NCBI RefSeq assembly: GCF_964204645.1
Contig: NC_134025.1
Span: forward strand, 15,659,001-15,723,000
Source of the DNA: Tubulanus polymorphus
Lineage: Eukaryota; Animalia; Nemertea
Direction: 5' to 3'
DNA: 64,000 nucleotides
Under the pieces are notes generated by a model. That model saw only the letters and a list, made by a program, of their open reading frames with translations, was not told where the DNA came from and ran no database searches. Numbering within the stretch: the stretch's first letter is position 1; each line of letters opens with the position of its first letter. The translations under genes were made by a program, and so were the position numbers. Shown piece by piece: positions 7,370 through 25,683 of this stretch.

Positions 7370-7778
7370 AGTAATAGGGGTAATGGGCTTTCAAATCAAA
7401 GGTCGAACGGTCGAGCTTATTAAAAACAAAACATTAAAAGTAATTTAAAACTATAATATATTTTCATAACCGTGTGCATTTTATATTATAACTAAATATT
7501 TATTCTAAGATATTAATAATTCAAATTTTAAAAGCATATTGTATTAAATCAATTGGTCGCTCCGCTTCGCTACCGCTCCACTCCGCGACCGATTGATTTA
7601 TTTACAATACACAAATTCATATAATCAAATATATTTTAATAATAATAATTATTCTATTATTCAACTGAAATGCACACGGTTTTGAAAATATATTATAGTT
7701 TTAAATTACTTTTAATATTTGTTTTTAATGAACTCGACCATTCAACCTTTAACCTGAAAGCCCATTACCCCTATTACT
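7370..7778. repeat. Left terminal fold-back palindrome of the Polinton (409 bp)
   Basis: AGTAATAGGGGTAATGGGCTTTCA at 7370 and its inverse ending 7778; arms pair for ~110 bp, an imperfect AT region follows, then an inner stem around a CGCT(C/T)-repeat loop at ~7557-7586. Confidence 0.9.
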
Positions 7779-8010
7779 CTTAAAATAATCATATACATGA
7801 ATAACATTTAAATTGACAGATTATTCAATATAAAAGTGTAAGCTCTTATAGAATAGATATATAGATATATTTACAACATTATTTCAATATTCATATTTGT
7901 ATGAGTTAGATTTTTAAACATTAAAAGTGTCAGTAAAGTGTGATTGAAATAATTCATATATAAATCATTGAACTTCTAAAATCAATTAAAAAAAAAAAAT
8001 TAGTATTAAA

Positions 8011-11000
8011 ATGGAAGCAAATAAGTACTACTGTCCAACATGTAATATCAATATACATAAATCCCAAAAATCAAGACACAATAAAACTAAAATACATTTA
8101 GAGAATAAATTGAAATTAGAATATAAGGATGATATATTAGAAACTAAATTAGAAGAATTAAAGAATGAAAAAGAAACATATAAATGTGATACATGTAATC
8201 AATCATTCAGTGATAAAAGATATTATAAAGAACATTTAAAATCTAAAAGTCATATTGGAAATATGAACAATGATATTTTAGGTGAGGATTATTTTGATAA
8301 AGATAATGATAAGAAACAGAAGACAATTAAAAGCATAAAAAATAAATTAAACAATAGAAGACCATACATGGAAGATGTAAGAAAATATATTAATTTATTG
8401 GATAATAAAAAAGATATAGAGACAACCGAAGCATTTAAAAGTGATATTGGTCCAGCAGCTATTGAGTTTAAATTTCATAAAGGAAAAACATTAGAAGAAA
8501 ATAAAAAACATTTAGAAAATATGAAAGAAATAATAAAAATAATAACTGATGTTGAATATCCTAAAATAAGTATTTCATCAAAAGTTAAATTCATAAAATC
8601 TGAAGATAAACCAATATATAATATAAATTCTCATTCACAACATATTATTTCAAAACAATATATAGATGATAACTTAGATAAATGTTATAATGAAGTAAAA
8701 ACTAAAATAGAAGAGAAATATTTTGATGGATCTGGTTTAATATTTGATGAAATAATATTTATGACTTTACATGTTTATAACACAAAATATAATAAGTTAA
8801 CTAAATCAAAACCAATTGATGAAAATAATGTATCATATTATAAAGAACCAGATATTGAAGCATCAAGTAATATTAAACTACCATTTAAAACTAATGCTGT
8901 AATAAATGGTCAAAATTTTGATGATAAATGTTTTCTATGGGCTATAATAAGTTGTTTACATCCTGCAATTTATAATATTTGTAGATTAACTCATTATAAA
9001 CCATTTGAAAATAATTATAAGATAGATAAGTATCCTGTTAGAATTAAAAACGTCCCAAAGATAGAAAGAGATAATAATTTAAGAATAAATGATTGATTTA
9101 ATCAAATTACCAAATACAAAAGGTAACAACATAAAACATTATACATTAGAACCTTTATACCTATCAAAAGATTATGATTCAAATGATGTTATAGATATAC
9201 TATATTATGCGAATCATTATATGTGGATTAAACAAATCGATTTATTTTTTAAATCAGAAAATGATCACCATAAAATATATCTTTGTAGAAAATGTTTACA
9301 TAGATTCAGTAATGAAAGTACATTATTAAATCATAAACAATTATGTGAAAATCATGATTATTGTAAATTAGTTTTACCAAATGAAAAGGATAAAATATTA
9401 GAATTCAAAAAATATGATTACAAAAATAAAGTACCATTTGTAATATATGGAGATTTTGAATCATTAAATAAAGAATTAACTGATCAAGATAGAAAAGAAA
9501 TATATTATAAAAGAAAAAAATTAAATTCTAATGAAAATGATTTTTCAGATGAACCACCAATAACAAATACAATTAAAAAGATCAGCTGCTGCTTTCGGGT
9601 TATATATTAAATCTGATTATCCAGAACTAATTGAAAGTGAATATTATAATTACAGAAATGAAAATGTTATCAATCATTTTTGTGACTTATTAATTGAATA
9701 TGAAATAGGATTTAGTAAATTATTGAATACAAATATAGAAATTATAATGACAGAAGAAGATAAAGAAGAATTTGCGTTTGCAGATAAATGTTATTATTGT
9801 GAAAAGATATTTAATTATAAAGATAAAAAAGTAAGAGACCATGATCATTTGAATGGAAAGTTTAGAGGCGCTGCACATGAGAATTGTAACTTACAAGCTA
9901 AGAAAATCAATTTTGTACCAGTTATATTTCATAATCTATCAGGATATGATGCACATTTATTTATCAAACAGTTATGTCATAAAATAGAAGAAATTAATAA
10001 TGAAATAGAAAGATTAAATTCAAATAGATCAAAAGATAAAATACCAACTCATAAATTTAGACTGTTAGCTAAAACATCTGAGAATTATATATCATTCCAA
10101 TTTGAGTGTTTAAGATTTATAGATTCATATAGATTTTTAAATAGTTCATTAGATAACTTATCAAAATCATTAGTTGATGATGAATTAAAAATATTAAAAC
10201 AACACTACCCAAATAATGATGATTTTCAATTAATGAGATATAAAGGAGCAATTCCATATTCTTTCTATAAAAATCATAATGATTTTAACATAACTGAATT
10301 ATTGAAAGAACAATTCTATGATGAATTAAAAAATGAATATGTTAAAGATGAAGTATATAATAGAACATTGAATATTTGGAATCATTTCAAAATAGAAAAT
10401 CATGGGCAATTAGTAGATTTATATTTAAAATCAGATGTATTATTATTAACCGATATATTCGAAAGGTTTAGAGATGTAAACCTAAAATATTTCAATATTG
10501 ATCCTTGTCATTGTTATTCTAGCCCAGGTTTAACATGGGATTGTGGATTAAAATTAACAGATATAAAAATGGATTTGTTAACAAATATAGATCAATTATT
10601 ATTATTTGAAAAATCTATAAGAGGAGGAGTTTCAGGTGTATTAGGTGATAGATATTTCAATGTAAATGATAACCCTGGATATAAGTTATTATATATAGAT
10701 GCAAATAATTTGTATGGTTGGGCAATGATGGAACCACAACCTTATGGAGTATTTGAATTAACTGAAGTTTTACAGAATGAAAATAATGATACATTTGATT
10801 GGAAGAAAAGAATCCTAGATATTGCAGATGATTCAGATACTGGTTACTTCTTTCTTGTAGATTTAGAATATCCTGAACATATTAAATTTAAATCTAGAAA
10901 TCTAGCATACTGTCCAGAACATAAAACTGTTACTCATGAAGAATTATCAAATTATCAAAAAAGAATTAAACCCGAAAATCTTATTCATACAGAAAAGTTA

Positions 11001-12104
11001 ATGGTAACTCAAGAAGATAAATATACTTATGTAGTACATTATAGAATGTTAAAGTTTTATCTAAAACAAGGAATGGTTCTAAAAAAAGTACATAGATATA
11101 TTTCATTTAGTCAATCTAAGTGGTTAGAAAAATATATAGATTTTAACACCAAACAGAGAACTGAAGCTAAAACTGATTTCGAGAAAGATTTCTTCAAGTT
11201 AATGAATAATGCATTCTATGGTAAGACTTGTGAAAATATTAGTTATAATGATATTGAGTTAGTTAGTAATGGTAAAAGAATTAGACATTTACAAGTATAT
11301 CCTAAGTTCATTGGTAACAGAATATTTGATGAAAATTTAGCCGCAGTTAAAATGAGAAGAACATCCATGAAATTTAATAAACCAATCTATGTTGGCGCTT
11401 CAGTTTTAGAATTATCAAAATTACTAATGTATGAATTCTATTATAATGTATTACAACCACTTTTTGGAGAAATACATATAGAAATATTATATTTTGATAC
11501 AGATGCTTACATATTAAAGATAAAAACTAATAACATAACTGATGATTTAAAAACATTAAAACATCATTTTGATTTCAGTAACTATCCTAGAAATCATGAA
11601 TTGTTTAGCAATGATAATAAAAAAGTTCCCGGTAAATTCAAAGATGAATTAGGTGGTGAAGAAATGATTGAATTCATCGGTATTAGATCTAAAATGTATT
11701 CATATAAAACTTAAGAACATGAAGCTAAAAAGTTAAAAGGAATAACCAAAAGTGTAGTAGAAAAGAATATTAATTTCAAAGATTACATCAATTGTATATT
11801 CAATGAAGAAGTTAGAAAACATAAGATGAAATGTTTAAGATCTGAAGATCATGAAATGTTTATTGAAGAAATTGAAAAGATAAGTCTAAACCCATTTGAT
11901 GGTAAAAGATATATTTTAGATGATGGAATTCATACAGTTGCTTATGGTTGCAATTTAGATGAATACTTAAAATTTAAAAGAGAAGAAACAAAAGAGAACG
12001 AGATAATGAAAAGAATTCTAACGTGTTCATCAAATTTTAATAAAAATATGTATTATAAATGGAGAGTAAACAAACACACAGTGAGAACAATAAATCATTT
12101 CTAG
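8011..12104 (+). pseudogene. polB: Protein-primed family B DNA polymerase (pPolB) with N-terminal C2H2 fingers and endonuclease VII-like insert; disrupted
   Basis: Exo motifs [23 protein letters not shown]; polymerase motifs [38 protein letters not shown]...[20 protein letters not shown]. Frameshifts near 9090 and 9580, premature TAA at 11712. Confidence 0.93.
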
Positions 12105-24620: not shown

Positions 24621-25274
24621 TTAAGCTCCAACGTATTTTTCATTATGTGTTGAATTCCATAATTCAACAAATGTCTTTGCTTTATCCAGTTGATCTAAAT
24701 ATAACTGTAAATCTAGTTTATTAGATTTAATTATATTTTCTTTCTTTTCTAAAGGCCTTAAATTTTTCCAGTTCCATATTAGCTTCTTATTATAATCATC
24801 ACTCATGTCAAATTTAGAAATCGGCAACACATGATCAATATGAAAGTATTCACCATAATTATCTATATTCATTTTATCATCGAATTGATATATTATCCAT
24901 GATATGAAAAATTCATCTGAACAACCCAATAAATTAGATAGTGTTTCTGAATGCGTTTCTTTGTTGAATAATTGTGTTAATCTAGATCTTAAACATTGTT
25001 TTAATCTAAAATTAAGATCTGTTTGATATCTTTCTCTCATATATTCTGTCATATAATCATTATAAGCTTCTCTATTATCATCTCGATATTGTTTGGTATA
25101 TAGTTTAGTACAAGTTTTACAGCAATATTGAAAACCATCTTTGCTAATCTTACGCTTATTAAATTCTGTTATAGCTAATTTATCTATTTCACATTTAGAA
25201 CACTTCTTGTAGTATATGTTTATGACACCAGTGTTATTTGTAATATTGATAGTTTGTAGTTGTTCTGATTCCAT
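24621..25274 (-). CDS. HNH endonuclease with N-terminal zinc ribbon
   Basis: CSKC...CKTC, helical linker, FHIDHVLP...WKNLRPLEKKENIIKSNK (H-N-N type); intact 217 aa. Confidence 0.85.
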   Translation of the reverse strand: MESEQLQTINITNNTGVINIYYKKCSKCEIDKLAITEFNKRKISKDGFQYCCKTCTKLYTKQYRDDNREAYNDYMTEYMRERYQTDLNFRLKQCLRSRLTQLFNKETHSETLSNLLGCSDEFFISWIIYQFDDKMNIDNYGEYFHIDHVLPISKFDMSDDYNKKLIWNWKNLRPLEKKENIIKSNKLDLQLYLDQLDKAKTFVELWNSTHNEKYVGA

Positions 25275-25495
25275 TTATTATACATATTTTTTTTACTAAA
25301 TTGATTTTAGAAGTTCAATGATTTATATCATGTATTATTTCAATCACACTTTACTTACACTTTTAATGTTTAAAATCTAACTCATACAAATATGAATATT
25401 GAAATAATGTTGTAGATATATACTTTTATATTGAATAATTTGTCAATTTAAATGTTATTCATTTATATTTTATTCATGTATATGAATGTTTTAAG

Positions 25496-25683
25496 AGTAA
25501 TAGGGGTAATACGCATTCAGGCTAAAGGTTGAAGGGGCGAGTGAGTAAAAAATGAAAATAACAATAATTTCCAGTTGAATTAGGAGTGTGCGCGACTAAT
25601 TCAACTGGAAATTATTGTTATTTTCATTTTTTACAAGCTCGACCCTTCGACCTTTGGCCTGAAAGCCTATTACCCCTATTACT
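25496..25683. repeat. Right terminal fold-back palindrome of the Polinton (188 bp)
   Basis: AGTAATAGGGGTAAT at 25496 and its inverse ending 25683; perfect inner stem GTAAAAAATGAAAATAACAATAATTTCCAGTTGAATTAG with a 12-nt loop GAGTGTGCGCGA. Confidence 0.9.

Follow-up and report, generated by a model that had tools for sequence, protein, structure and literature searches.

The 64,000-nucleotide stretch of Tubulanus polymorphus DNA analyzed here (the window; RefSeq assembly GCF_964204645.1, contig NC_134025.1, positions 15,659,001 to 15,723,000 of the forward strand) carries a Polinton of 18,314 bp, at window positions 7370-25683, each end of which is a long fold-back. These fold-back hairpins are a real, family-wide and inherited end structure. 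Their stems are kept by paired changes, and the polarity of the differences between outer and inner arms is fixed. Regarding their function, we tentatively favor a multi-copy Polinton with fixed-orientation fold-back ends, in which hairpins on the 3′-ending strand likely serve copying of the ends primed by a terminal protein (TP); our confidence in this proposal falls a little short of even.

The 15-mer AGTAATAGGGGTAAT occurs in the window at exactly four sites (7370+, 7764-7778-, 25496+ and 25669-25683-), as the initial annotation of this DNA had claimed. There are two copies per element end, in opposite orientations, bounding each fold-back. With up to two mismatches allowed, 0.14 matches were expected, and four matches were reached in 0 of 100 shuffles. 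The terminal features, including the target site duplication (TSD) and an ordinary terminal inverted repeat (TIR) internal to the fold-backs, are the following.

7364..7369: left TSD, GGGGTG
7370..7778: left terminal fold-back, 409 bp, of which the minus strand (3′-ending) folds better; outer arm 7370-7481, imperfect core 7482-7667, inner arm 7668-7778
7779..8015, plus strand: left copy of the inner ordinary TIR, stopping at the start codon of the polymerase gene, pPolB
25270..25495, minus strand: right copy of the inner ordinary TIR
25496..25683: right terminal fold-back, 188 bp, of which the plus strand (3′-ending) folds better
25684..25689: right TSD, GGGGTG

The right end agrees with the 188-bp palindrome annotated initially, with 88-bp arms that form 80 Watson-Crick pairs out of 88 around a 12-nt loop (25584-25595). 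The left end had been described as a 409-bp palindrome. Its arms of approximately 110 bp each are indeed near-perfect (101 identical columns among the first 111), but the perfection of the whole was overstated: the middle, approximately 186 bp, is AT-rich and imperfect, and encloses a 13-bp stem (7547-7559/7586-7598) whose loop is rich in C. In that loop, the 3′-ending strand reads GCGAAGC at 7566-7572, where the predicted fold contains a small stem; we take this heptamer to be an unusually stable DNA mini-hairpin.

Folding z-scores ranged from -20 to -22 for all four strand folds, and no shuffled sequence folded as well. Self-complementarity reached 279 and 232 bits at the two ends, compared with at most 33.7 bits in 42 interior windows. 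At both ends, the 3′-ending strand folds better than its complement by approximately 6 kcal/mol, and the base of the stem coincides with the element terminus to the nucleotide; a terminal hairpin could pair flush at its 3′ end. The fold-backs most likely fold physically.

The ordinary TIR of approximately 230 bp that had been placed inside the fold-backs was also recovered, with 197 identities, 12 mismatches and 45 gap columns between 7779-8015 and 25270-25495. Its inner edge is the start of both terminal open reading frames (ORFs), and it may represent a duplicated promoter; 152 to 183 bp of it are deleted in many sister copies. If the two inner TIRs paired with each other, both hairpins would come to lie where three arms meet in a nicked junction.

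Sister copies were studied through reads only. A run search listed 10 runs, none of them of RNA, which has no bearing on expression, and we used approximately 12% of the reads of a raw Illumina whole-genome shotgun dataset (X5) that bears the same species label and comes from a study other than that of the index holders. At the left end, the depth rose from approximately 25 in the flank to approximately 1450 in the asymmetric core, without interruption (57x); the right loop was covered at a depth of approximately 1200 (47x flank). The sister elements thus share the fold-back ends rather than having simple TIRs, in line with the initial annotation. Assuming a single-copy flank, as all these ratios do, the Polinton is present in roughly 50 host copies. 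Reads exit the element at 7370 (1845 reads) and at 25683/4 (1775+586 reads) into unrelated sequences (agreement 0.33-0.34), and such diverse flanks in more than 4,000 tip reads indicate many insertion sites. Contigs of runs X1-X3 join the left flank to right-flank sequence, as an empty site would, but this flank also belongs to a repeat. There was no pile-up of molecule ends in the reads, nor are fragmented genomic libraries expected to give one. Over 25496-25524, 280 reads carry a divergent inner tip motif, which suggests a subfamily in which the inner copy is relaxed.

We then looked at relatives. A metagenome scan yielded 30 loci, four of which (L121 to L124) show 65% identity to the polymerase N terminus. 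L121, L123 and L124 probably belong to a single element (cluster 6), leaving only two distinct close relatives; L121 and L122 have enough upstream DNA to judge the ends, and L123 and L124 too little. L122, of which one end is visible, has a complete 257-bp fold-back (190-446) that starts with AGTAAT and is preceded by GC-richer sequence (0.36 versus 0.21). There is no blastn similarity between the L122 end and those in the window, and the base of the L122 stem is also at the terminus to the nucleotide. L121 starts inside a hairpin, of which the loop and the inner arm are visible, with the same doubled GG(T/G)(C/T)GA motif. In L122, the 16-bp tip motif recurs in direct orientation, as a third copy, at 948-963, approximately 60 bp upstream of the pPolB start.

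Fold-back ends look clade-specific. Twenty distant viral loci (31-39% identity) were also considered, with both TIRs visible in two, L104 and L116. Local inverted repeats were found in the distant loci L128 to L130, L136, L142 and L147, none assignable to a terminus (L136, L142 and L147 inspected). One of these distant relatives, L142, has a possible Polinton left end at 2641-2982, with a 72%-complementary palindrome approximately 125 bp inside. A scan of viral contigs with AGTAATAGGGGTAAT gave 100 single matches, none resembling the element ends by blastn. The capsid and integrase scans of viral contigs and the phage scan yielded no relative, and the genome-contig scan only one irrelevant Zn-finger match.

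Three sites read C in the two outer arms and T in the two inner arms, as the initial annotation had noticed; it had overlooked two sites of the opposite kind (positions 16 and 27 counted from the tip), where outer and inner arms agree within an end and the ends differ. CpG deamination was considered as the origin of the outer-C/inner-T pattern and set aside, since the majority of these sites lie outside CpG dinucleotides. Among sister copies, variants near the right loop come in pairs: 25571/25608 (41/46%), 25572/25607 (45/35%) and 25574/25605 (35/33%), as taken from the best 40 rows of per-site tables of unphased reads. Skip joints were exactly symmetric about the right loop in three of the seven listed (139 reads), and the copies concerned have shorter hairpins, in which the stem differs yet remains self-complementary and the loop motif is unchanged. 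Five mismatches are private to the present copy, 87 to 99.6% of reads being paired at those sites.

Within the initial ~110 bp of the left stem, seven of the eight transition mismatches are G·T on the 3′-ending strand; so are all three of the right stem, whose sites are homologous to left ones. The single left exception occurs in this copy alone. In L122, all six transitions run in the same direction as in the stems of the window. Taken together, the left stem and L122 thus show the polarity at 13 of 14 sites (P ~0.002, two-sided, if the sites are independent).

The initial annotation had envisaged flip and flop isomers of the loops. A junction between the inner end and host DNA was not among the six top loose-end positions listed for each end in X5, which bounds such isomers at <273 versus 1845 reads (13%) on the left and <280 versus 2361 (11%) on the right. 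Depth shows no step across the right inner junction (1756 versus 1800), and the loop strings have one orientation in all 12 listed out of 48, which come from related copies. Twenty-seven reads (1.5% of junction depth) link the inner TIR to an outer-type arm. The idea that each end might be a mini-element was not borne out by depth either: solo hairpins would give an excess, and the left core is covered at 0.95x the level of the polymerase 5′ region.

The polymerase itself bears on how the ends might be copied.

8011..12104, plus strand: pPolB, with Zn fingers, a predicted TP domain, a vOTU-like domain, an exonuclease region with an Endonuclease VII (EndoVII)-like insert, and the polymerase domain
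8416..8781, plus strand: predicted TP (LF/PAD-like) domain, with a candidate linking Ser at 8731-8733
9750..9896, plus strand: EndoVII-like insert in pPolB (Pfam PF02945, E 3e-5)

The gene was recognized by Pfam PF03175 (E 3e-15). In the present copy it is broken, with frame breaks near 9090 and at 9570-9610 and a stop at 11712-11714; three relatives have a natural full-length pPolB of 1319 to 1365 aa. An AlphaFold2 model built with 84 sequences (mean predicted local distance difference test score of 83) gave a beta-alpha-beta-beta-alpha-beta domain, with a Gly-flanked Ser, almost without variation, in the loop that connects helix 2 to the final strand (alpha2-beta4). The alpha2-beta4 loop is where the linking residue of TPs sits, and TPs derive from the Y-family polymerase fold (PMC11071308). 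Ten of the 11 top PDB matches of the predicted domain are Y-family polymerases (Z 6.4-8.1, root-mean-square deviation 2.8-4.2, 92-109 aligned residues), and among viral proteins, those of adintovirus and MELD virus match it best. In the vOTU-like region, the putative catalytic Cys is nearly invariant, and a His motif occurs in the frame piece that follows as well as in relatives. According to the model, pPolB keeps a TP domain with its linking Ser, and protein priming looks retained rather than replaced. The initial annotation had suggested self-priming and had left the TP domain to structure prediction; such a domain is predicted, and hairpin priming as a replacement is unsupported.

Two candidate nucleases are encoded. 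The Zn cysteines and the His motif of the EndoVII-like insert are conserved in nine aligned sequences. The second candidate is the right-terminal ORF:

24621..25274, minus strand: Zn-finger/HNH nuclease, intact, 217 aa (phrog_1035, E 2e-16), whose start is the inner end of the right TIR

The PHROG family of the latter is labelled endonuclease VII, and its DH..N..N residues are invariant in 15 sequences. Its predicted fold resembles HNH domains in general and points to no particular junction resolvase; T4 endonuclease VII was absent from the fold matches, which does not exclude a likeness. Its nearest feature matches are phage proteins. The ORF is also present in L121, L122 and L124, and the gene order differs in L121 and L122. 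No Pfam match to an HUH Rep or an SF3 helicase was obtained among the element ORFs scanned, and no RuvC-type resolvase was found in the element.

The structure on the 3′-ending strand, the flush pairing of the tip, the kept orientation and protein priming are most simply fitted by a locally folded duplex origin. According to the mechanism that we favor, the hairpin would form on the 3′-ending strand of single-stranded replication intermediates. In the course of strand-displacement synthesis, the 3′ end of the displaced strand would pair flush with its own inner arm, recreating the terminal duplex in cis. Adenovirus-type replication uses a long-range panhandle, which the local fold-back would replace. 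The folded end would then provide both a local double-stranded origin for the TP-primed polymerase and a template for end repair. A protein-primed start would copy through the loop and regenerate the end without inversion, which the fixed orientation fits. Occasional fold-back repair or selection would keep the arms of an end matched and leave the two cores free to diverge. Priming by a TP and fold-back repair on folded 3′ overhangs both have a precedent in Streptomyces telomeres (PMC5449611, PMC4513846).

Several points weigh against this proposal. No replication intermediate was seen, the data all being from integrated copies. The Z-scores of the predicted TP domain lie at a level that the structure-search tool flags as possibly generic (Z <8), and a retained fold is no proof of use. 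L104 and L116 (32-37% identity) have no terminal fold-back in self-comparison, their exact tips being uncertain, which indicates that protein priming needs no hairpins. The paired variants rest on per-site tables rather than phased reads. The polarity is seen at few sites, some of them homologous, and seven of eight on their own give a two-sided P of 0.07; strand-biased mutation could be an alternative source of the polarity, and the two strands of L122 fold equally (-69.4 versus -69.5 kcal/mol) despite their transition polarity. Finally, a 3′ hairpin that pairs flush is just as ideally suited to prime itself, and fold-back extension has been seen in vitro even in Streptomyces; neither mechanism excludes the other.

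Self-priming could account for the same ends. In a rolling-hairpin-like cycle, the flush 3′ hairpin would be the primer, and the resulting closed-end duplexes and dimer junctions would be resolved asymmetrically, so that one orientation survives; the TP would serve only for the first initiation or be vestigial. Minute virus of mice is known to resolve its left end asymmetrically, to one orientation. We regard this cycle as unlikely, even though the exact flush pairing of the 3′ end with the inner arm, a G·T polarity that favors the 3′-ending strand, the two candidate nucleases and the 27 reads joining the inner TIR to an outer-type arm all speak for it, as does the hairpin model proposed for protist virophages as well as Polinton-like viruses (PLVs; bioRxiv 10.64898/2026.07.28.741278). 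Those 27 reads could just as well come from left inner arms, which resemble the right outer arm slightly more than this copy's right inner arm (72 versus 68 of the first 100 positions). Flip and flop forms near 50:50 are not seen, the element ORFs scanned include neither an HUH Rep nor a helicase family, and the residues of the TP and vOTU-like domains are conserved. Moreover, the palindromes of the virophage study preferentially accompany replicases other than pPolB (bioRxiv 10.64898/2026.07.28.741278).

A hybrid end has a modest chance of being correct. The EndoVII-like nuclease would cut the base of the hairpin for excision or dimer resolution, and the 3′ hairpin would prime or template synthesis with its orientation kept, alongside the TP. 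If true, this arrangement would give Polintons their missing excision step and bridge protein-primed and hairpin-primed DNA viruses.

Alternatively, the palindromes might be excision signals, extruded as a cruciform or folded on the lagging strand, with their base at the element boundary, and cut by the EndoVII-like or HNH nuclease or by the integrase; fill-in through the retained hairpin would restore the end in its original orientation. The coincidence of stem base and terminus at both ends and in L122 suits this explanation. Diagonal cutting of a cruciform would keep orientation, pPolB contains the EndoVII-like insert, and an intact HNH ORF is common to both hairpin-bearing relatives despite their different gene order. 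Such cutting would also be compatible with the mechanism that we favor. We nevertheless find this explanation quite unlikely. Mismatched arms, such as those seen here, impede cruciform extrusion. Footprints of solo hairpins are not evident from depth, and the HNH protein, with its generic fold and phage-like nearest features, could be a selfish homing nuclease. POLB of insect Mavericks likewise has annotated EndoVII-like inserts, with no palindrome or hairpin mentioned in the part of that report consulted (PMC5803895).

The fold-backs might be a functionless by-product, the outcome of an ancestral template switch that doubled the end and of repeated fold-back conversion that, with no selection, holds the arms alike; this is improbable. 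Intramolecular copying alone can yield symmetric changes, and many distant Polintons replicate without such ends. However, the hairpin persists through near-complete sequence turnover at 65% polymerase identity, with no blastn match between ends, and fixed differences between outer and inner arms survive that unselected conversion should erase.

We hold it very unlikely that the fold-backs act at the level of RNA or transcription, as terminators, insulators or sources of double-stranded RNA from outward transcripts, or as a reused protein-binding or promoter motif. The G·T (G·U) polarity would suit the outward-reading strand, both terminal ORFs begin at the inner TIR edge, and L122 has its third, direct tip-motif copy before pPolB. 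Such roles need neither flush pairing of the last base nor a duplicated integrase end motif, and there was no Rfam match.

Lastly, palindromes are prone to misassembly, none of the listed Logan pieces extends across an entire hairpin and the L121 sequence begins within one, but an assembly artefact or one-off rearrangement has a negligible chance and is refuted by the raw reads of another study, which span both asymmetric cores continuously at 1200-1450x, by arms that are mismatched rather than perfect and by the independent hairpin of L122, all in keeping with the initial annotation. Contigs tend to break at fold-back ends, and the trait is therefore probably under-reported.

Among known systems, the element is close to Polintons/Mavericks, or adintoviruses (PMC11071308, bioRxiv 10.1101/697771). 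It shares with these elements a length of approximately 18 kb, TIRs with 5′-AG ends, a 6-bp TSD, an rve integrase, an A32 ATPase, a probable double jelly-roll (DJR) capsid protein and a pPolB with a predicted TP domain and vOTU-like residues. It differs in that each end is a 190- to 410-bp fold-back with a duplicated tip motif and differing left and right cores, and in that a maturation protease, present in adintoviruses, was not detected among the element ORF pieces scanned. The words "hairpin" and "palindrom" are absent from the main text of the adintovirus preprint (10.1101/697771).

Virophages of Halocafeteria seosinensis and one PLV subtype have terminal palindromes beside the TSD, for which hairpin priming was proposed (bioRxiv 10.64898/2026.07.28.741278). 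The common point is a palindrome that adjoins the TSD in an integrated Polinton-like element. The palindrome figured in that work is 52 nt long, whereas the fold-backs here are four to eight times longer and end-specific; the palindromes there go preferentially with non-pPolB replicases, unlike here, where a pPolB keeps its predicted TP; and orientation and strand polarity were put to the test in the present work.

Streptomyces telomeres (Tpg/Tap; PMC5449611, PMC4513846) likewise combine TP priming on a folded 3′ single strand with fold-back end repair, and have a terminal sequence complementary to an internal copy. They are bacterial, with an internal origin, several short GNA-loop palindromes and an unrelated primase, in contrast with the single long stems found here; the likeness may be read as an analogy of working principle only. 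Casposons (PMC4046053) are also self-synthesizing transposons with a PolB and palindromes in some TIRs, but they are prokaryotic, use a Cas1 integrase and have palindromes internal to the TIR instead of whole-end fold-backs. The portions consulted of PMC12747079, 10.1101/2022.05.25.493380, PMC11296320 and PMC13685816 leave our reading unaltered.

The ends also resemble other viral termini. Parvoviruses and poxviruses have imperfect terminal hairpins, and their left and right ends can differ. The present element departs from them by the lack of visible flip and flop forms, by the absence of a detectable HUH Rep or RuvC-type resolvase and by its rve integrase and TSD. We found no report of such long whole-end fold-backs on a TP-retaining pPolB Polinton in a literature search that left Repbase and subscription papers outside, so that an earlier mention is possible.

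Terminal hairpins in this virus supergroup are thus not limited to elements without pPolB. Excision and end copying of Polintons rest on a little-tested model, that of a TIR panhandle and protein priming (as restated in bioRxiv 10.64898/2026.07.28.741278). Long, selected and orientation-fixed ends along with a retained primer domain offer short, defined substrates that would separate protein priming, self-priming and nuclease cutting in vitro.

The rest of the element is AT-rich (interior GC content of 0.21-0.32, versus mostly 0.33-0.50 outside) and contains the following genes and gene pieces.

12059..12412, plus strand: 117-aa ORF, function not assigned; 63-64% identity to its L121 and L122 counterparts
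17458..18705, plus strand: probable DJR major capsid protein, 415 aa; 924 homologues
19766..20242, minus strand: A32-like packaging ATPase, piece (Pfam PF04665, E 1e-10)
20285..21139, minus strand: retroviral-type integrase, piece (Pfam rve, E 8e-9)
22632..22847, minus strand: second copy of the HNH ORF, partial and decayed (direct repeat D3, 79% over 160 nt)

In L121 and L122, the counterpart of the 117-aa ORF adjoins the left end. The capsid candidate had no sequence match in Pfam or PDB; its ESM feature matches reach 0.97 to Capsid_N/DJR clusters, a recognition that is sub-threshold. No match to an adenain-like maturation protease was obtained among the 24 + 14 element ORF pieces scanned, the genes being decayed and divergent. 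Intergenic repeats are present at 19306-19758 and 23053-23390: short TAATAGGG-like tandem units separate convergent gene blocks, and there are also three 72-bp copies with a small palindrome.

The element sits in one arm of a palindromic repeat of the host (7329-7369 and 25684-25776). Positions 25684-25741 form a perfect 58-bp palindrome, and 25735-25776 are 90% complementary to the left flank. Depth is approximately 10x that of the flank at 25693-25714, which indicates that the host palindrome is a repeat family. The repeat landscape of the window suggests a eukaryotic, probably animal, host. Elsewhere in the window, a miniature element of the fold-back type, whose 42-bp terminal arms are perfect, lies at 6066-6457, with a related tandem unit at 27365-27451. 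The regions 36792-39410, 44600-47793, 42496-44044 and 51185-64000 hold pieces of Ty3-like gag/protease, a retroelement of the tyrosine-recombinase type that has an ALOG domain, and a 118-bp satellite array that this retroelement interrupts.

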